Source of the DNA: Gammaproteobacteria bacterium
Lineage (GTDB): Bacteria; Pseudomonadota; Gammaproteobacteria; UBA4575
Length of the DNA stretch: 64,000 nt
Reading direction: 5' to 3'
NCBI GenBank assembly: GCA_965262455.1
Contig: CBDHFH010000003.1
Location: 94,360-158,359 of the forward strand
Part shown: piece after piece, positions 27,643 through 36,501 of the stretch
Layout of the letters: every line of letters starts with the position of its first letter
Position numbering within the stretch: position 1 is the stretch's first letter
The notes under the pieces: model-generated
What the model was told of the DNA's origin: nothing
The model's database searches: none
Seen by the model: the letters and a program-made list of their open reading frames with translations, nothing else
Program-made: the position numbers and the translations under genes

Positions 27643-28839
27643 CTAGATTGGCACACCTAGCGCATGGCGCATAAATAGTAGTTTTAACGGCAGCACTTTA
27701 TCTGTCATGTTGACACCCACAGAACGCGCATGTTTAACCAAGCCACGTTGCTCCCTGAATAATGTATCAATTATCTCTAATGACTTCTGCATAATAATAT
27801 TTTCACTTTTACGCGCACGTTCATACTGACGCAACACGCGTCTGCTGCCTAGGGGCCTTTCAGAGGACTGTAGTAAATTGAATAGATGGTGCACATCAGC
27901 AAAGCCAAGATTCAACCCTAGGCCGGCCAAAGGGTGGACCACATGGGCTGCATCACCCAATAACACTACTCGGTGATCGATATACTGACTTGCTTGGGCA
28001 CCCTGCAACGGAAATGACTTTCGCACTGAGCACACAGACAGTTGTCCTAATTTATTCTCAAACGCCTGCGTGAGTTCAAGATTAAATTCTTGTTCGGTTA
28101 ATGCCATCAACTGCTGGCATTGTTGTTCGGGGACACTCCATACAACAGAGCACACATGATCATCCAATGGTAACAGCGCTAATGGTCCGACAGGCGTAAA
28201 ACATTGCCACGCTGTTTGCTGATGATCTTGCTCGGTATTGACGGTACATACCAAGCCTAATTGTTGATAGCGGGTTGTTACGCGGCTGGCACCTATACAT
28301 TCACGCACCATGGATTGTTGCCCATCTGCGCCCAAGACTAATTCAGCGCTTAAACGCTCACCTTCAGCTAATTCCATCAACATCGCTGTATCGGATATCG
28401 CTGATAGATGCTGCAAACCCTGCCGATCAAAGCGCTTAATGTTGTTACATTGATCGACTTTGTTATTCAACGCCGTCAACAGCACCTGATTTTCAACAAT
28501 CACGCCCAGCATAGGGTGCGTTGTATCCTGGCAATTGAAATTAATCAACGTCTCGGCTTGCTGTTCCCATACATGCATAGATTGATAAGGACAGACACGC
28601 ATGGCACGTATATCCCGCCAAACACCAATATGTGTTAATAATTCTATGCTCGCTAAATTAAGTGCACTTACACGCAAGCCATAATCATCCCCAGCTTGCC
28701 ACGGGGTGAAAGGCGTATGGTCGATCAGGGCCACACGTGTATATTGTTGCGCCAATAGCGTGGCTGCAGCCAATCCCACTGCACCAGCACCAACAATAGC
28801 CACATCGAATGGAGCAACGCTATTGACCAAACTGATCAC
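27643..28839 (-). CDS. ubiI: FAD-dependent ubiquinone-biosynthesis monooxygenase (UbiI/VisC-like)
   Basis: 398 aa; FAD fingerprint DVAIVGAGAVGLAAA, GDAAH..HPLAGLGLNLG. Follows ubiH as in E. coli. Confidence 0.8.
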   Translation of the reverse strand: MISLVNSVAPFDVAIVGAGAVGLAAATLLAQQYTRVALIDHTPFTPWQAGDDYGLRVSALNLASIELLTHIGVWRDIRAMRVCPYQSMHVWEQQAETLINFNCQDTTHPMLGVIVENQVLLTALNNKVDQCNNIKRFDRQGLQHLSAISDTAMLMELAEGERLSAELVLGADGQQSMVRECIGASRVTTRYQQLGLVCTVNTEQDHQQTAWQCFTPVGPLALLPLDDHVCSVVWSVPEQQCQQLMALTEQEFNLELTQAFENKLGQLSVCSVRKSFPLQGAQASQYIDHRVVLLGDAAHVVHPLAGLGLNLGFADVHHLFNLLQSSERPLGSRRVLRQYERARKSENIIMQKSLEIIDTLFREQRGLVKHARSVGVNMTDKVLPLKLLFMRHALGVPI

Positions 28840-30043
28840 CTTCCGGGCTTAGTAAATGGCGGGTTCCCATATTACGTCTCAACACGCTGCGTTGTGCCGC
28901 AGGAAGACTGCCTATCATGCGCACGCCTAGACCTCGCAGCAATTTTAACGGCCAAACCTGCGGGGCGAATAAACGTGTTAAGCCATCCGTTAAGCGCATA
29001 ACATGTTGCCGATCTGGCGTACGCTGTTGTTGATATTCAGCTAACATGTGTGGGTATTGTGCGGGATCAAACTTAAACTTTGTGAGCATATGTACCAATG
29101 TATGCACATCACGTAAGCCGAGGTTAAATCCTTGGGCCGCCACGGGATGCACAGTCTGGGCGGCATTACCTATCAGCACAGCTTGCTGACGTGTTAACTC
29201 ATCGCTGCTGGTCATTGCCAAAGGATAAGACGCTCGACGTCCCACAGCGATAAACTTACCTAAGCGATAGCCAAAGGCCTTCTGTAAGGCCTGTAAAAAT
29301 CGCGCATCATTCATTTGCATATAGTCGTCAACATGATTTTCATGCTGCGTCCAAATCAACGCGCAATGATTATCGTGGATCGGCAATACCGCTAATGGTC
29401 CATGCTGAGTGAAACGTTCATATGCCACATTATTGTGCGGCTTTTGCGTTTGCACATTAGTGATGATTGCGTTTTGATGATATTTCTTATGTGTCGCATA
29501 GATATTCAATAATTCACGTACTTTTGAATGTGTTCCATCTGCACCCACTAACAAACCTGCGGAAATATGTTTTGTTACGCCTTGATGTTGAATTTCTATT
29601 TGGTAGCCATTTGCCTGAGAGTGAATAACGTCGCACGTGGCAGGAGAGAGCACTGTAAGGTTATTTATTTGTGCGACTTCATCACTGAGTACTTTCATCA
29701 AATGATGATTAGGCACCATGTAGCCGATTGGTGCTATGCCATGATGATTCGCATCAATACGAGCACCTCCAAAATTACCTTGTTCAGAAATATCCAGGCG
29801 CTCAATCGCATTTGCCAATGTTGCTATTTTTGGCCAAACGCCGACTTGAGAAAACATTTTTTCAGAGCTACGTGTTAATCCCGTGGTCCTTAAATCGAGG
29901 ATATTATCGTGCAAGGCAGCGGATTCACTTTGCTCAAGCAGCAGCACCTTACACGGTGTGTTTGCCAACCCAACAGCCAGCGACATGCCCACCAGTCCAC
30001 CACCGACAATGACAATATCAAAATTTAATTCGGGGTTATGCAT
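28820..30043 (-). CDS. ubiH: 2-octaprenyl-6-methoxyphenol hydroxylase (FAD monooxygenase)
   Basis: 407 aa; FDIVIVGGGLVG, GNAAQTVHPVAAQGFNLG. Position between pepP and ubiI. Confidence 0.85.
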   Translation of the reverse strand: MHNPELNFDIVIVGGGLVGMSLAVGLANTPCKVLLLEQSESAALHDNILDLRTTGLTRSSEKMFSQVGVWPKIATLANAIERLDISEQGNFGGARIDANHHGIAPIGYMVPNHHLMKVLSDEVAQINNLTVLSPATCDVIHSQANGYQIEIQHQGVTKHISAGLLVGADGTHSKVRELLNIYATHKKYHQNAIITNVQTQKPHNNVAYERFTQHGPLAVLPIHDNHCALIWTQHENHVDDYMQMNDARFLQALQKAFGYRLGKFIAVGRRASYPLAMTSSDELTRQQAVLIGNAAQTVHPVAAQGFNLGLRDVHTLVHMLTKFKFDPAQYPHMLAEYQQQRTPDRQHVMRLTDGLTRLFAPQVWPLKLLRGLGVRMIGSLPAAQRSVLRRNMGTRHLLSPEGDQFGQ

Positions 30044-30061: not shown

Positions 30062-31372
30062 CTAGTGTTGCGAGGACGCCATCCAATGTTCTATGTCATG
30101 CGCTTCTTTAATGAGCGCTTGCGTCAGCACTTCATTGCCATTGCGCGTTACACGCACATCATCTTCAATACGAATGCCGGTATCCCAGTAACGCTTAGGC
30201 ACACCTTTGGATTTTGCAGGAATATATATTCCCGGCTCAACCGTCAGGACCATACCTGGCTCAAACAAGCGCCATTGTTCTTCGATTTTATAATCCCCCA
30301 CATCATGCACATCCAGACCTAACCAATGTCCAGTACGGTGCATATAAAAACGTCGATACTCACCATCTTTAATCAATTGTGCAGGACGCCCTTTCAAAAT
30401 GCCTAACTTAACCATACCCCTGGTTAATACTTTTACCGCCGCATCATGTGGGTCATTCCAATGGTTACCCGGCTGCACTGCTTCTATGGCAGCATGTTGC
30501 GCCTTCAACACCAGGTTATACAGCTCTAATTGTGGCTCACTGAATTCGCCGCTCACCGGGAAAGTACGTGTAATATCACTGGCATAGCCGTGGTACTCTG
30601 CGCCTGCATCAATCAGCAGTAAATCGCCTTCGTTAAGTACACAGTTATTATCGGTATAGTGCAAAATACATCCGTTTTCACCGCCGCCTACAATTGAAGG
30701 ATAAGCAGTGTCACAGCCTGCTTTATTAAACTCGTACAATAACTCAGCTTCGACCTGATATTCATACATGCCAGGCTGACAGCTTTGCATCGCACGTCGA
30801 TGTCCCGCCATGGCGGCTTTGGCCGCTTTCTTCATGTAAGTAATTTCTACACCTGATTTAAACAGGCGCAATTCATGTAACAAATGCTCTAGGGCGATAA
30901 ATTCGTGCGGCGTATGAGAGCCTCCACGCCCTTTTTCGCGAATTTGGTTGACCCAACCAATGACGCGGTGATCGAACTCGGTATTAACACCCATGGTGTA
31001 AAATACACGTGCGCGTTGCTCTAGAATACCGGGAAGAATTTCATCAATGTCTCCGATTGGAAATGCATCGTCAGCACCATAGACTTCCATTGCACCCTTT
31101 TGACCAGCACGTCGTCCATTCCAGGTTTCCATTTCCATGTCACGTTCGCGACAAAACAATATGAATTGCGCCTGTTCTCGACCAGGCACCATAACGGCAA
31201 CTGATTCTGGTTCATGGAAACCTGTTAAGTACATAAAATCACTGTCTTGACGATAATCGAACTCAACATCTCGATTACGAACTTTTACAGTCGAGGCAGG
31301 CACAATCGCGATAGCATCTTGCCCCATCATGCGCATCAAATTTTTCCTGCGTTTAGCAAATTCTTTTTCCAA
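30062..31372 (-). CDS. pepP: Xaa-Pro aminopeptidase (aminopeptidase P)
   Basis: 436 aa; M24 metallopeptidase motifs (DAGAEYHGYASDITRT, HGTGHWLGLDVHD). Confidence 0.9.
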   Translation of the reverse strand: MEKEFAKRRKNLMRMMGQDAIAIVPASTVKVRNRDVEFDYRQDSDFMYLTGFHEPESVAVMVPGREQAQFILFCRERDMEMETWNGRRAGQKGAMEVYGADDAFPIGDIDEILPGILEQRARVFYTMGVNTEFDHRVIGWVNQIREKGRGGSHTPHEFIALEHLLHELRLFKSGVEITYMKKAAKAAMAGHRRAMQSCQPGMYEYQVEAELLYEFNKAGCDTAYPSIVGGGENGCILHYTDNNCVLNEGDLLLIDAGAEYHGYASDITRTFPVSGEFSEPQLELYNLVLKAQHAAIEAVQPGNHWNDPHDAAVKVLTRGMVKLGILKGRPAQLIKDGEYRRFYMHRTGHWLGLDVHDVGDYKIEEQWRLFEPGMVLTVEPGIYIPAKSKGVPKRYWDTGIRIEDDVRVTRNGNEVLTQALIKEAHDIEHWMASSQH

Positions 31373-31921
31373 TTATTGAATCTCCGCCGTCATTTTGATT
31401 GGCTGTAACTCTTCTGCAACAAGCAAGGCTGACATACGCACATATTCGAGCAGCTCGTTGTAGGAGACTTCTTCATCTTCTTGACCCGTGTCAGCACCAT
31501 GCAACTGCGAGATGCGAGTAAGGTCGACTAATATCTCTGCTGTGTCATGAGGAAGCTCTGCATGCGCCTGTAAGCCAGCATTCGCTAAGCCAAATAAAAA
31601 CCCGTCGCACCATGCTGCTAATGCTGTCACACGTGTACTCAAATCCATATCATCATCAGGCACCAGCACGTCTAACTGCAAGACCGGATCTGTCATTTGC
31701 TGTCGTACTGTCCCATACAAACTCGTGAGCATGTCATCCAGTTCTGCATTGATTTTAATATGACTGAGATCAGGTGCCAGCGTGTTCATACAACTATCGA
31801 GTGGATAGGAAACATCTAGTGCCACGGCCCCACATAAGAAGCCATGTAATTCTGAAGCGCGCTCACCGAAGTCCAATGACTTCAATGCATTATTTAATTC
31901 TTGGCAAGAAAGTTGTTGCAT
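31373..31921 (-). CDS. ygfB: YgfB/UPF0149 family protein
   Basis: 182 aa; position upstream of pepP and divergent from zapA, as in E. coli. Confidence 0.75.
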   Translation of the reverse strand: MQQLSCQELNNALKSLDFGERASELHGFLCGAVALDVSYPLDSCMNTLAPDLSHIKINAELDDMLTSLYGTVRQQMTDPVLQLDVLVPDDDMDLSTRVTALAAWCDGFLFGLANAGLQAHAELPHDTAEILVDLTRISQLHGADTGQEDEEVSYNELLEYVRMSALLVAEELQPIKMTAEIQ

Positions 31922-32080
31922 TTTTCCAGTCTACCACCATTATTTTCAAATATTTATATCCAGGCATGGTTAAATAATCCTGTTCATTCAAGGAATTATA
32001 GGGTTTTTCACTCTGTCGTATTGACCCCTGCTGTGGTAATATCTAATATCTATTTGCAGCCATAATAATAAAAACGTCAT

Positions 32081-32296
32081 ATGAATATTTCAGAAGAAGA
32101 ATTTAAGCGACTTGAAATTCGTATTGATGAGCTAATTCAAACATGCGATCAACTCAAAGAAGAGAATCGATTGTTAAAAGCTCAACAACAATCTTACAGT
32201 AGTGAACGAGCTAAACTTCTTGACAAGCAAGAAGAAGCGCGTCACCGAGTTGAATCTATGATTAATCGCTTAAAGGCATTAGAAACGAGCAGCTAA
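32081..32296 (+). CDS. Small coiled-coil protein (TIGR02449/ZapB-like) upstream of zapA
   Basis: 71 aa, all heptad coiled coil (EENRLLKAQQQSYSSERAKLLDKQEEARHRVESMINRLKALE). Conserved position immediately 5' of zapA in many gammaproteobacteria. Confidence 0.6.
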   Translation: MNISEEEFKRLEIRIDELIQTCDQLKEENRLLKAQQQSYSSERAKLLDKQEEARHRVESMINRLKALETSS

Positions 32297-32306
32297 CAGA
32301 TAATTT

Positions 32307-32615
32307 ATGAGTTCCAATCCTATCACTGTACAAATTCTTGATAAGGAATATCGCATTGCTTGCCCCGAAGGACAAGAACAAGCCTTGCGTGAATCAGCGA
32401 ATTACCTAAACAAACGTATTCTGGAAGTAAGAGAAAGCGGCAAAGTAATAGGCCCTGATAGAATCACGGTAATGGCCGCATTAAATCTTGCACATGAGTT
32501 CCTATCTGAGCGATCAGAACACGAAACAGTCGCTTCTAACATCAACCAACGTGTACGTAGCCTGCATGAGCGGATAGATAGTGCCATTCGTTCTTCTAAT
32601 CAGTTGGAATTATAA
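32307..32615 (+). CDS. zapA: Cell-division protein ZapA
   Basis: 102 aa; VQILDKEYRIACPEGQEQALRESANYLNKRI...AALNLAHEF aligns with E. coli ZapA. Confidence 0.85.
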   Translation: MSSNPITVQILDKEYRIACPEGQEQALRESANYLNKRILEVRESGKVIGPDRITVMAALNLAHEFLSERSEHETVASNINQRVRSLHERIDSAIRSSNQLEL

Positions 32616-32629
32616 GAAAACCCATCGTA

Positions 32630-32838
32630 AACTAATCTCTAGCGCCTCTGCGATATGCGTGAGCTTGTCGTTAAATCCCTTGAGCCTATTTACAAACCCC
32701 GGGATTGCTCGTTAAAAGATAGTGTGCATACCTGCTTCGACAGGGAGCCTTAAATCTCTTACAGTGAACCCACTTGAACCTTTGGTTCAAGGTCAACGGC
32801 TCATGCCACGGTACTCATGGAGTGCGCTTTTCCCATCT
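32630..32838 (+). ncRNA. ssrS: 6S RNA (SsrS), RNA-polymerase sigma70-holoenzyme-binding regulatory RNA
   Basis: Starts just after the zapA stop. Strong primary-sequence similarity to E. coli 6S: CCCUUGAGCCUAUUUACAAACC matches CCCUGAGCCGAUAUUUCAUACC, and GGAGCCUUAAAUCUCUUACAGUGAACCCACUUGAACCUUUGGUUCAAGG matches GAAGCCUUAAAACUGCGACGACACAUUCACCUUGAACCAAGGGUUCAAGG. The terminal segments (CUCUAGCGCC... / ...CUCAUGGAGUGCGC) can pair to close the central-bubble structure. Confidence 0.8.
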
Positions 32839-32925
32839 TATTTACTCCCCCACACTCAGGTAGCAGTTGTTTATCCATATGCTAGGATAAATGCTTACTT
32901 TGAATTCATAAAAGAGATTTTTGCA

Positions 32926-33378
32926 ATGCACTATTGGCTAATGAAGACCGAACCTAGTGAATACAGTATTGACGACCTAAAAAAAGATAAAACTGAACCC
33001 TGGGATGGCGTGCGCAACTATCAAGCACGCAATATGATGCGTGATGAAATGAAAAAAGGCGATTTAGCTTTTATGTACCACTCAAATTGCGATGACATAG
33101 GCATTGTCGGAATCATGACAATACATCGCGAAGGCTATCCTGATCACACTGCGTTTGATAAAAAAGACAAACACTATGATCCTAAAAGTGACCCTGATAA
33201 TCCACGTTGGATGATGGTTGATGTTAAATACAAACGTAAACTTAAGCGCACCATTACTCTGCAAGAACTAAAACAGCATAAAATTTTGCAAGATATGCAG
33301 CTGTTACGCAAAGGAAATCGTCTTTCTGTCATGCCTGTTAGCGAAAAACATTGGCAATATATTCTTTCACTTGAATAA
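32926..33378 (+). CDS. EVE (PUA-like) domain protein
   Basis: Internal start MHYWLMKTEPSEYSIDDLKKDKTEPWDGVRNYQARNMMRDEMKKGDLAFMYHS... matches EVE-domain N-terminal signature. The longer 218-aa ORF upstream overlaps the 6S RNA and is rejected. Confidence 0.7.
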   Translation: MHYWLMKTEPSEYSIDDLKKDKTEPWDGVRNYQARNMMRDEMKKGDLAFMYHSNCDDIGIVGIMTIHREGYPDHTAFDKKDKHYDPKSDPDNPRWMMVDVKYKRKLKRTITLQELKQHKILQDMQLLRKGNRLSVMPVSEKHWQYILSLE

Positions 33379-33695
33379 ATTTAAATAATTTCTTTATAAA
33401 TGCTAAAAAATGGATTCATTATTAAGATTTTTATAAACAAAAGGCATTTAAATCCGATTTAATGGTTGTTATGTTAAAAAATAAAACAGATTTGCATGTT
33501 TTGCGAATAATATTTTATGTTTTTTTCATGCAATTGCTTTGTAAAAACACTAAAAATCTTTTTTAAAAACTTATAAAAGTAAAAAAACACAGACGAAAAG
33601 TTTAAAAAACAATATAAAAAAACTAGTAATTTTTAGACTATTGTTTATACTCACGTCGTCAAAAAACGTTAACGTTAAAGTTTGGAGGAACACCA
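33379..33695. promoter_or_regulatory. ~320-bp highly AT-rich (A/T-tract) intergenic region upstream of the H1-like gene; probable curved promoter/UP-element DNA
   Basis: Long A-tracts and T-tracts spaced roughly helically (aaaaaa, tttttt runs). Ends in RBS tggagga 7 nt before the ATG at 33696. Confidence 0.4.
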
Positions 33696-34034
33696 ATGGC
33701 CGTCAAACGCAAAACTGCGAAACGAAAGACTGCAAAACGTAAAGCACCTGCTAAGCGTAAAGCAGTAAGAAAGACTGCGAAGCGTAAAACAGCTAAGCGT
33801 AAAACAGTTAAGAAAAAAACTGCGAAGCGTAAAACTGCAAAGCGCAAAACAGCCAAGAAGAAAACCGCTAAGCGTAAAACTGCGAAGCGTAAAACAGCAA
33901 AAAGAAAAACTGCTAAACGTAAAACTGCCAAGCGCAAAACAGCAAAAAGAAAAACTGCTAAGCGCAAGACAGCTAAGCGTAAAACAGCAAAAAGAAAAAC
34001 TGCTAAACGCAAAACAGCTAAGAAAAAGCGTTAA
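33696..34034 (+). CDS. Histone H1-like / AlgP-like basic repeat protein, (KRKTA)n pentapeptide repeats
   Basis: 112 aa, ~20 tandem copies of [KR]-[KR]-K-T-A, no other sequence. Good RBS; strong rho-independent terminator immediately downstream. The antisense ORF 33659..34012 (Leu/Ala-rich) is its mirror image. Confidence 0.7.
   Translation: MAVKRKTAKRKTAKRKAPAKRKAVRKTAKRKTAKRKTVKKKTAKRKTAKRKTAKKKTAKRKTAKRKTAKRKTAKRKTAKRKTAKRKTAKRKTAKRKTAKRKTAKRKTAKKKR
33705..34025 (+). repeat. Tandem 15-bp coding repeat (aag cgt aaa act gcN; encodes KRKTA), ~20 imperfect copies
   Basis: Direct inspection: repeating aagcgtaaaactgcg / aaacgtaaaacagca units. Confidence 0.85.
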
Positions 34035-34052
34035 TCAAATAGCATTTGAATT

Positions 34053-34082
34053 AAAAAGGGTCCTTAACGGACCCTTTTTTTT
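34053..34082. terminator. Rho-independent terminator, bidirectional (aaaaagggtcc-ttaa-cggaccctttttttt)
   Basis: GC stem flanked by an A-run and a T-run, between convergent H1-like gene and ilvA. Confidence 0.8.
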
Positions 34083-34086
34083 ACCC

Positions 34087-35640
34087 TCATTTTAGAAACA
34101 AACGATAAATGGGATTGTCTGTTTCATCATAGTAAGCATAGCCAAGTTTATCCAAAAATCCTTTAAATTCATGCACTTCTGATGCCGGTACTTGTGCGCC
34201 AATTAATACTCTGCCATATGCCGCGCCGTGATTTCGGTAATGAAATAATGAGATATTCCATTGCGAACCCATCACGGATAAAAACTTTAACAATGCTCCC
34301 GGTCTCTCGGGAAATTCAAAGCGATAAATCAGCTCATCGTCTAACTGAGGTGAACGCCCACCCACCATATGTCTCACATGCAGCTTGGCCATTTCATTGT
34401 CAGACAAATCTGTCACGGGATAATTATTTGCTGATAACAAATCTATAATCATTGGCTTTTGTTGTTCTGCATCTTCGAATTTAATGCCAACAAAAATATG
34501 CGCCGCGTCATCACTCGCATAGCGATAATTAAATTCGCTGATACTGTGACTACCGATTAAGGTGCAAAATTTTAAAAAACTGCCTTTTTGCTCTGGTATG
34601 GTCACAGCCAATAATGCCTCACGGCCTTCACCAAGCTCAGTTCGTTCTGTTACATGCCTTAATCGATCAAAGTTGATATTGGCGCCACTATTGATCGCGA
34701 CTAAGTTCAAATCCTCACATTTTTGCCGTTGAACATATTTTTTCGCCCCCGCAACGGCTAACGCACCGGCAGGCTCTGAAACAACACGAGTATCATCAAA
34801 AATATCTTTTATCCCTGCACATAACTCATCAATACTCACCAATACCACTTCATCAACATACTGTTTGGCCAATTCAAACGTATTCTCGCCAATTTTTTTT
34901 ACTGCCACGCCATCTGCAAAAATACCTACCTGTGGTAATTCAACGCGTTCGCCCGCCTGCATTGCAGAATAAAGCGTTGCTGCATCCTCAGGTTCCACTC
35001 CAACGATTTTAGTATGTGGTGAGTGTTGCTTAACCCAGGCCGAGACACCGGCAATTAAACCTCCACCGCCGACAGGGACGAAAATTACATCAATCTGACC
35101 GTCAAATTGTTCTAATATCTCTTTACCTATGGTGCCCTGACCCGCGATGACTTCCACATCATCATAAGGATGAATAAATACTTTATTTGTCTCATCTGCT
35201 ACTTGATAAGCATGTGTGCATGCTTCGTCGTAGTTATCGCCTTGCAATACTACATTGGCGCCCATCGCACGGACGGAATCTACCTTAATACTGGGTGTTG
35301 TCACGGGCATGACGATGGTTGCATCAATATTTAATCGCTGTGCGGCCAGTGCCACACCCTGTGCATGATTGCCCGCAGAGGCAGCAATGATACCTGCACG
35401 TTTATGCGCTTCACTCAGATGGGAGATTTTGTTATACGCTCCTCGCAACTTAAACGAGAAGACACTTTGCTGATCTTCACGCTTAAGCCATACATTATTC
35501 GCTAGCCGCTTGGATAACAGCTTGGCAAAGTTCAATGCACTCACCTGCGCGACATCATAAACTGATGCATTAGAAATCATCTCATTCACCTGAGTTACAT
35601 CGTATTCGGTGATATGATTAGACAATTTTGTATTTTTCAC
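34087..35640 (-). CDS. ilvA: Threonine dehydratase, biosynthetic (two C-terminal ACT-like regulatory domains)
   Basis: 517 aa; PLP-fold motifs (SFKLRGAYN, SAGNHAQGVALAA) plus a ~180-aa C-terminal regulatory region. Confidence 0.9.
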   Translation of the reverse strand: MKNTKLSNHITEYDVTQVNEMISNASVYDVAQVSALNFAKLLSKRLANNVWLKREDQQSVFSFKLRGAYNKISHLSEAHKRAGIIAASAGNHAQGVALAAQRLNIDATIVMPVTTPSIKVDSVRAMGANVVLQGDNYDEACTHAYQVADETNKVFIHPYDDVEVIAGQGTIGKEILEQFDGQIDVIFVPVGGGGLIAGVSAWVKQHSPHTKIVGVEPEDAATLYSAMQAGERVELPQVGIFADGVAVKKIGENTFELAKQYVDEVVLVSIDELCAGIKDIFDDTRVVSEPAGALAVAGAKKYVQRQKCEDLNLVAINSGANINFDRLRHVTERTELGEGREALLAVTIPEQKGSFLKFCTLIGSHSISEFNYRYASDDAAHIFVGIKFEDAEQQKPMIIDLLSANNYPVTDLSDNEMAKLHVRHMVGGRSPQLDDELIYRFEFPERPGALLKFLSVMGSQWNISLFHYRNHGAAYGRVLIGAQVPASEVHEFKGFLDKLGYAYYDETDNPIYRLFLK

Positions 35641-35847: not shown

Positions 35848-36501
35848 ATGGATATAAATGACAAAAAGAAATTAGCCGCTGAAGCTGCGATAGATTATAT
35901 ACAAATTGGCGATATTGTCGGGGTCGGCACTGGCTCAACTGCAAACTACTTTATCGACGCACTCGCCGGCATTAAAGGCAAAATTGATGGCGCTGTTGCT
36001 AGTTCTGAAGCAAGCGCTGAGTTATTACAGTCACATGGTATTCGGGTACTTGACCTCAATGCCACCGGACAATTACCTATCTATGTCGATGGTGCCGATG
36101 AAGCGACACAGCAAAAATCCCTAATTAAAGGCGGCGGCGGCGCGCATACACGTGAAAAAATTGTTGCCAATGCGAGTGATAAATTTGTTTGTATTGCAGA
36201 TGACTCAAAACTAGTCGATGTACTGGGCAAATTTCCTTTGCCTGTTGAAGTGATCCCGATGGCTCGCAGCTCAGTCGCAAGAGAAATGGTGCGCTTGGGG
36301 GGTGTTCCCGAGTTACGTGAGGGCTTTGCGACTGATAATGGCAATATTATTTTAGATGTCCATAATCTGGAAATTCTTGCGCCGGCAAAAATGGAAAGCG
36401 ATATCAGTGTCATGGCTGGTGTTGTGACGGTAGGGATATTTGCCCACCGCCCTGCTGATGTTCTTTTACTTGGCGGTGATTCAGGGCTCACCACACTCTA
36501 A
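35848..36501 (+). CDS. rpiA: Ribose-5-phosphate isomerase A
   Basis: 217 aa; [37 protein letters not shown] motifs. Confidence 0.9.

Follow-up and report, generated by a model that had tools for sequence, protein, structure and literature searches.

6S RNA binds the sigma70-RNA polymerase and templates pRNA, and EVE domains, which belong to the PUA-like superfamily, bind modified bases in DNA or RNA. Bell, Wolf and Koonin (2020, BMC Biol 18:159, PMC7641849) described a "ZapAB->SsrS->(FAU1)->EVE" unit in beta- and gamma-proteobacteria, an array ZapB->ZapA->EVE in which ssrS lies between ZapA and EVE and FAU1 (YgfA) is optional. They proposed polycistronic expression for the unit and reported a head-to-head YgfB->PepP->UbiH->UbiI array, with RpiA and IlvA as frequent neighbours (PMC7641849). 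Their hypothesis was that a modified base in 6S RNA is recognised by EVE, no such modification having been reported (PMC7641849). A 2026 study of the beta-proteobacterium Cupriavidus metallidurans (PMC13492112) placed ssrS between zapA (Rmet_2791) and an "RNA-binding protein" gene (Rmet_2792), mapped the main, strong transcription start to a position within zapA, 248 bp upstream of where 6S begins, and showed that ssrS is dispensable in this organism. From the statement on Burkholderiales in PMC7641849 we infer that Rmet_2792 is an EVE protein. Our literature search turned up no experimental study after 2020 that deals with standalone bacterial EVE proteins and 6S.

The locus studied here lies in a 64-kb stretch of DNA, analysed as a whole and called the window below. 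It has the zapB, zapA, 6S and EVE genes of the Bell et al. unit in the same order and on the same strand (all +, co-directional, 32081-33378), a highly conserved, slow-evolving EVE, no FAU1, the head-to-head ygfB-pepP-ubiH array, and ilvA and rpiA nearby; nothing essential differs. The arrangement, including its ygfA-less form, has been known since 2020 (PMC7641849), and the window is an ordinary example of it. Compared with E. coli K-12 (zapA-ssrS-fau), the window shares ygfB-pepP-ubiH divergent from zapA, 6S right after zapA, rpiA nearby and a short C-rich spacer before the next gene (75 nt in E. coli); it differs in that E. coli has fau (ygfA) but neither EVE at the locus nor a zapB-like gene before zapA. 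With C. metallidurans it shares an ssrS followed by the next gene without ygfA between them, although that organism is a beta-proteobacterium. We consider it very probable that the locus is a standard ygfA-less copy of the ZapB->ZapA->ssrS->(YgfA/FAU1)->EVE unit with mixed expression of EVE. As a discovery this matters little: arrangement and ygfA-less form were published in 2020, and the window adds one more instance. What is new is modest, namely an annotation artefact, counts of the two forms of the cluster, a rut-like tract and a promoter-like motif specific to one subclade.

The 6S RNA gene and its neighbours

6S RNA (RF00013) was the sole Rfam family above threshold in the 64-kb window. 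The match, at 32642..32828 (+), covered model positions 1-187 of 187 and scored 77.4 bits (gathering score 46.4, E 1.6e-13). A covariance model of our own, trained on 12 Rfam-confirmed sequences, placed the gene at 32642..32827 with 157.6 bits. The first-pass annotation had called 6S RNA here; the full-length covariance match bears the call out, and re-scoring did not overturn it. Across 65 distinct homologues 92.1% of cells were paired, versus 28-44% in slid controls, and 19 of 31 pairs showed compensatory changes, in an alignment that was fitted to the model and so favours the structure. Covariance models confirmed 6S in 121 related loci, and in every 6S-bearing locus of the set it was found on the EVE strand. 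The 6S sequence of the window had no blastn match in E. coli genomes because the sequences are too diverged. A permissive Rfam re-scan of 32560-34100 gave nothing credible beyond 6S; a match to JA04, with 24 bits against a cut-off of 81, sits on the terminator described below and was set aside as noise.

Upstream of 6S, zapA occupies 32307..32615 (+; Pfam PF05164, 95.9 bits) and is preceded by a zapB-like coiled-coil gene at 32081..32296 (+; Pfam ZapB, 35.2 bits with a cut-off of 31.5; NCBIfam TIGR02449, 79.1 bits). A promoter-like sequence 5' of zapB, TTGACC-17-TAATAT at 32021..32049 (+), matches the consensus at 9/12 positions and is a candidate operon promoter; it is weak evidence, because the region holds no more of these sites than chance would give. 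A second candidate, the proximal ssrS promoter TTGGAA-18-TAAACT at 32604..32633 (+), runs across the zapA stop codon to a point 8 nt ahead of the 6S 5' end. It is kept in the window's subclade as TA(A/C)ACT; the corresponding position reads TGCTACAGT or TGCTAAACT in sister subclades and TGGTAGAGT in E. coli. The promoters and the Rho site discussed for the window are all predictions made from its sequence. 6S would be transcribed from the proximal promoter (about 32604-32633) and probably by read-through from zapBA as well.

The ygfB-pepP-ubiH array stands head-to-head with the zapB-zapA unit. It comprises ygfB (UPF0149; 31373..31921, -; Pfam PF03695, 106.9 bits), which is divergent from zapB, pepP for Xaa-Pro aminopeptidase (30062..31372, -; Pfam AMP_N, 136.2 bits, and Peptidase_M24, 227.8 bits) and a ubiH-like gene for a FAD-dependent hydroxylase (28820..30043, -; Pfam FAD_binding_3, 109.9 bits), placed as in relatives and as E. 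coli ubiH. On the far side of EVE lie two usual neighbours of the cluster, ilvA for threonine dehydratase (34087..35640, -; Pfam PALP, 271.5 bits, and Thr_dehydrat_C, 172.8 bits) and rpiA for ribose-5-phosphate isomerase A (35848..36501, +; Pfam PF06026, 192.4 bits).

Two forms of the cluster, with and without ygfA

A tblastn search of the 64-kb window with E. coli Fau (YgfA; sequence from the MG1655 annotation) gave no match. A YgfA profile of 34 sequences from related loci reached at best E = 0.44 (5.5 bits) against the six-frame translation of the 64 kb, with positive controls at 226-302 bits. The absence of ygfA from the locus, as first described, is therefore upheld for the whole window. 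The first-pass annotation had gone further and described EVE as standing behind 6S instead of ygfA. We gathered 80 species-representative genome loci and 80 metagenome loci and scanned each for 6S and YgfA; in total, 166 EVE loci were compared, 86 genome-derived and 80 from metagenomes. The direct order zapA-6S-EVE was found in 34/86 genome loci with gaps of 21-247 nt, in one more with a gap of 423 nt, and in 29/80 metagenome loci. The longer order zapA-6S-ygfA-EVE was found in 30/86 and 27/80. A further 4/86 and 10/80 showed ygfA-EVE with the contig cut or 6S undetected, 17/86 and 5/80 had neither 6S nor ygfA, and 9/80 metagenome loci had too little upstream sequence, a class not scored among the genome loci. 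Combined, 63/166 loci have the direct form without ygfA and 57/166 have ygfA, so that the co-directional order holds in 120/166. Six contigs with close EVE homologues (77-93% identity) carry zapB-zapA, a gap of about 290 bp and then EVE.

EVE is thus not taking the place of ygfA: 57 related loci have both in the order 6S-ygfA-EVE, which makes EVE the following member of one conserved cluster. It is a resident gene, usually found behind ygfA, and directly behind 6S where ygfA has dropped out. A functional replacement, in which EVE would have taken over the role of YgfA behind 6S by non-orthologous displacement, is extremely improbable in our judgement. The positional coincidence in the window is all that speaks for it, while EVE and YgfA stand in tandem in the 57 loci and in 14 more on cut contigs or without detected 6S, the PUA-like binding domain of EVE is unrelated to the cyclo-ligase fold, and the spacers hold no remnant of ygfA. 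A search of the long 6S-EVE spacers (those of L014, L022, L063, L031, L057 and the window) for such remnants gave none, all with E > 1.

The distribution of the two forms points to repeated loss of ygfA from the cluster. All relatives whose EVE is at least about 74% identical to that of the window have the direct form, and the same form occurs in unrelated lineages, namely Methylobacter sp. (L084, 21-nt gap), Ectothiorhodospiraceae MAGs (L029, L054) and a Thiotrichaceae MAG (L030). A neighbour-joining tree of 100 distinct EVE proteins, which is built on 150 aa and indicative only, required at least 7 changes of form, versus a mean of 34 with shuffled states. The tree has ygfA present at its root, and it places the window inside a 40-leaf clade that is uniformly ygfA-less. 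On this tree ygfA would have dropped out several times, with at least 7 changes, and EVE would have come to lie next to 6S once ygfA had been lost or moved, in the ancestor of the window's marine gammaproteobacterial clade.

The EVE gene and the reading frame that runs into 6S

The ORF at 32926..33378 (+) encodes a standalone protein of 150 aa. It matches Pfam PF01878 (EVE) with 213.5 bits against a cut-off of 23, over residues 3-148 and positions 2-144 of the 145 in the profile; the match spans nearly the whole domain, and the EVE call and the 150-aa length first given both hold. No NCBIfam model matches the protein. It is homologous over its full length (residues 1-150, E about 1e-38 to 1e-41) to solved standalone EVE structures, with Leishmania 2ar1 at 2e-41, human THYN1 3eop at 4e-41 and PSPTO5229 2eve at 7e-38; THYN1 5j3e and Pseudomonas PP5205 2g2x are further full-length matches. 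We know of none of the solved standalone EVE proteins with an established ligand linked to 6S RNA. There are at least 8000 homologues, the closest of them 77-93% identical and from uncultured marine Gammaproteobacteria. Among 29 homologues M1, Y3 and W4 are invariant, as are the core residues WDGVRNYQARN, YHSN and others. The window protein is a member of the slow-evolving, housekeeping-type class of standalone EVE proteins, and it would act as a putative PUA-like reader of a modified base.

The start codon follows from the same comparison. The ribosome-binding region AAGAGATTTT (32912..32921, +) holds the block AAGAGAT, conserved 5-14 nt before the ATG, and together with the invariant M1, Y3 and W4 it shows that the start at ATG 32926, as first proposed, is right. 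A six-frame ORF of 218 aa opens further upstream, at GTG 32722 (32722..33378). Its 68-aa N-terminal extension (32722..32925, +) is spurious and non-coding: it overlaps the 6S gene and matches no Pfam family, in line with the earlier warning that the longer ORF would be a mis-annotation. The extension peptide NPLEPLVQGQRLMPRY is the 3' arm of 6S (CCCACTTGAACC...GGTTCAAGG...CCACGGTA) in translation. The same 6S-arm peptide recurs in database entries that are too long (P0003, P0010, P0016, P0052), and database homologues annotated at 199-222 aa carry extensions with "PLEPLVQGQ(R/W)LPRY". The extension looks conserved only because 6S RNA is conserved. For annotation this is a recurrent artefact, in which gene callers repeatedly run the EVE ORF into the 6S gene.

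The 6S-EVE spacer and the expression of EVE

By the Rfam ends, the spacer between 6S and EVE is 97 nt long (32829..32925), rather than the 88 nt first given. The earlier statement that no terminator intervenes is borne out: a pattern scan found no intrinsic terminator between 6S and EVE, the spacer folded no better than shuffled sequence (z = 0.10), and RNAalifold on nine relatives returned a consensus with 0 pairs. The first strong intrinsic terminator 3' of ssrS and EVE lies at about 34053..34082; it is bidirectional (GGGUCC-UUAAC-GGACCC followed by U8, -17.7 kcal/mol, z = -4.84) and is common to the EVE side and the convergent ilvA. With no intrinsic terminator between 6S and EVE, read-through from ssrS is possible, and the 6S-EVE dicistron proposed by the first-pass annotation is plausible but unproven. 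EVE is not the last gene ahead of this terminator. A Lys-rich (TAKRK)n repeat gene of 112 aa follows at 33696..34034 on the same strand (+), before the terminator; this ORF, with a tandem repeat of period 15 in 20.8 copies and no Pfam or NCBIfam match, may or may not share the EVE transcript.

The first half of the spacer (32829..32878, +) is C-rich and G-poor (16 C, 5 G) and ranks in the top 2.2% among 50-nt windows of the same strand. It is rut-like and could serve as a loading site for Rho. A bias of C over G after 6S recurs in 40/47 direct loci and 53/54 loci of the 6S-ygfA form, and E. coli shows it between ssrS and fau (27 C, 10 G); such a bias is a loose indicator, composition alone being no proof of a rut site. 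Chae et al. 2011, to go by its title, reportedly deals with Rho-dependent termination after E. coli ssrS. Transcription past the 6S 3' end of the window would meet this tract, where Rho may be loaded as in E. coli.

The second feature of the spacer is an extended -10-like motif, TATGCTAGGAT, at 32878..32888 (+), a candidate EVE promoter with the hexamer TAGGAT at 32883-32888. In the window's subclade the spacers (10 sequences of 94-108 nt, related to each other and amounting to roughly 7 independent lineages) are unalignable except for CTTT right after 6S, the ribosome-binding site and the island T(G/A)TG(C/G)TA(G/C)GAT. This island fits TRTGnTATAAT, the consensus of the extended -10, with variation confined to the degenerate positions. 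The distance from the end of its hexamer to the EVE ATG is 35-47 nt in 10/10 subclade sequences and 37 nt in the window; TAGGAT matches the -10 at 4/6 positions and is not accompanied by a good -35. The conservation of the motif suggests a separate EVE promoter in the window's subclade, which would give a 5' UTR of about 30 nt. All other direct-form lineages, including those with spacers of 21-68 nt, lack the motif, and it is therefore not a general feature of ssrS-EVE. We also considered the island as an RNA hairpin, terminator or processing element and rejected these on the fold and consensus results already given (z = 0.10; 0 pairs in 9 relatives). A 7-bp palindrome, TTTATCC-N8-GGATAAA, is present in the window but missing from relatives, and was likewise dropped as an element.

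These features bear on how EVE is expressed. One reading is that EVE has no promoter of its own and is translated only from ssrS read-through, with 6S cut from the 5' part of the transcript. The spacer without intrinsic terminator or stable hairpin agrees with it, as do the case of ssrS-ygfA in E. coli and the polycistronic expression proposed in PMC7641849. Spacers of only 21-25 nt in L084, L065, L160, L111 and L113 also favour it: they are too short to house a promoter beyond the 6S gene, and EVE in these lineages must, judging by spacer length, use read-through or a promoter within 6S itself. In the window's subclade, however, the spacer keeps the -10-like motif at a fixed distance from the ATG while the rest is unalignable, and the rut-like C-rich tract right after 6S suggests that much transcription stops there. 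We regard this reading as doubtful for the window.

The opposite reading, that 6S ends Rho-dependently in the spacer, EVE is transcribed only from its own promoter and the adjacency is inherited synteny of two uncoupled genes, draws on the same conserved motif and the same C-rich, G-poor tract, and on the 57 loci in which EVE lies one whole gene away from 6S. Against it, in 120/166 loci, spread over many orders, EVE shares the strand of 6S or ygfA and follows it immediately, which argues for selection on co-orientation, and the very short spacers elsewhere call for read-through or for a promoter that lies within 6S. Complete independence thus also seems unlikely to us. The best reading is a mixed one, inferred from these sequence features, in which EVE would be expressed from residual, attenuated read-through and, in the subclade, also from an extended -10 promoter of its own (32878-32888). 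The candidate promoter and the rut-like tract are concrete targets for work on the expression of the gene behind ssrS.

Beyond expression, EVE might be a dedicated partner of 6S that reads a modified base in 6S or its precursor, its gene standing under a 6S-sensitive extended -10 promoter in a feedback loop. Promoters with an extended -10 and a weak -35 are especially sensitive to inhibition by 6S RNA (PMC13492112, citing Cavanagh 2008). We hold such a partnership to be very improbable. If true, it would make 6S and its EVE reader a feedback loop in the window's subclade, and the staying of EVE by 6S after repeated loss of ygfA would reflect partnership and not inertia of gene order. That EVE stays behind 6S in 63 ygfA-less loci mildly favours a link of EVE to 6S/ZapAB over one to folate metabolism.

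Proximal promoter-like element of ssrS and the 6S-derived extension of EVE annotations

Immediately ahead of ssrS lies a conserved proximal promoter-like element (32604-32633, + strand) that overlaps the zapA stop codon. In the window's subclade it reads TTGGAA-18-TA(A/C)ACT, whereas sister subclades carry TGCTACAGT or TGCTAAACT (extended -10) in its place, and the counterpart in E. coli ssrS is TGGTAGAGT. The element also recurs in the related EVE loci L010-L019 and L102-L109, approximately 13 nt upstream of the 6S 5' end.

In public databases, EVE proteins are often annotated at 199-222 aa because the ORF has been prolonged into the 6S gene. The extension in over-long database homologues (P0003, P0010, P0016, P0052) contains PLEPLVQGQ(R/W)LPRY every time, which is the 6S 3' arm in translation; the window equivalent of the extension is 32722-32925. 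It thus has the appearance of a conserved N-terminal domain.

A Lys-rich repeat gene and a terminator before ilvA

Downstream of EVE, following an AT-rich spacer (33379-33695), an ORF on the + strand (33696-34034) encodes a 112-aa Lys-rich protein made up almost entirely of T-A-K-R-K pentapeptides, about 20 in tandem. Its DNA comprises 20.8 copies at period 15, with super-periods of 45 and 90 nt. The protein, which had no match in Pfam or NCBIfam, may be a histone-H1-like nucleoid protein. Relatives have an ORF without a Pfam match at the same place, and its very variable length (31-104 aa) suggests that the gene varies in repeat copy number between relatives.

Between this gene and the convergent ilvA sits a strong bidirectional intrinsic terminator (34053-34082, both strands; A5-GGGUCC-UUAAC-GGACCC-U8), with a folding energy of -17.7 kcal/mol (z = -4.84). 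A simple terminator scan overlooked it, probably because the A/U tracts lengthen the stem.

Arrangements of the EVE gene in related loci

In 17 genome loci the EVE gene lies away from zapA, 6S and ygfA, including L042, L047, L073, L074, L080 (Methylococcales) and L079 (Solemya symbiont), and these EVE genes are highly similar, at 66-71% identity. Methylococcales have both contexts, Methylobacter L084 showing the direct form (zapA-6S-EVE without ygfA between). Desulfuromonadales-labelled MAGs (L044/L053/L078) carry an EVE 67-68% identical with no 6S or ygfA nearby.

In one MAG locus, L034 (4111-5001), ygfA begins about 85 nt downstream of zapA and EVE comes next; the covariance model detected no 6S there, making it the only uncut locus with ygfA-EVE lacking 6S. 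The spacer between 6S and EVE is unusually long in three loci of the direct form, at 423 nt (L022, 4578-5000), 247 nt (L014, 4754-5000) and 198 nt (L063, 4803-5000); in these spacers neither a ygfA remnant nor a called gene was found.

MAGs bearing the labels Opitutaceae, Acidimicrobiales and 'Halobacteria archaeon' also contain contigs with the gammaproteobacterial-type EVE locus (accompanied by zapA and 6S in L008, L040 and L068); these contigs are probably mis-binned.
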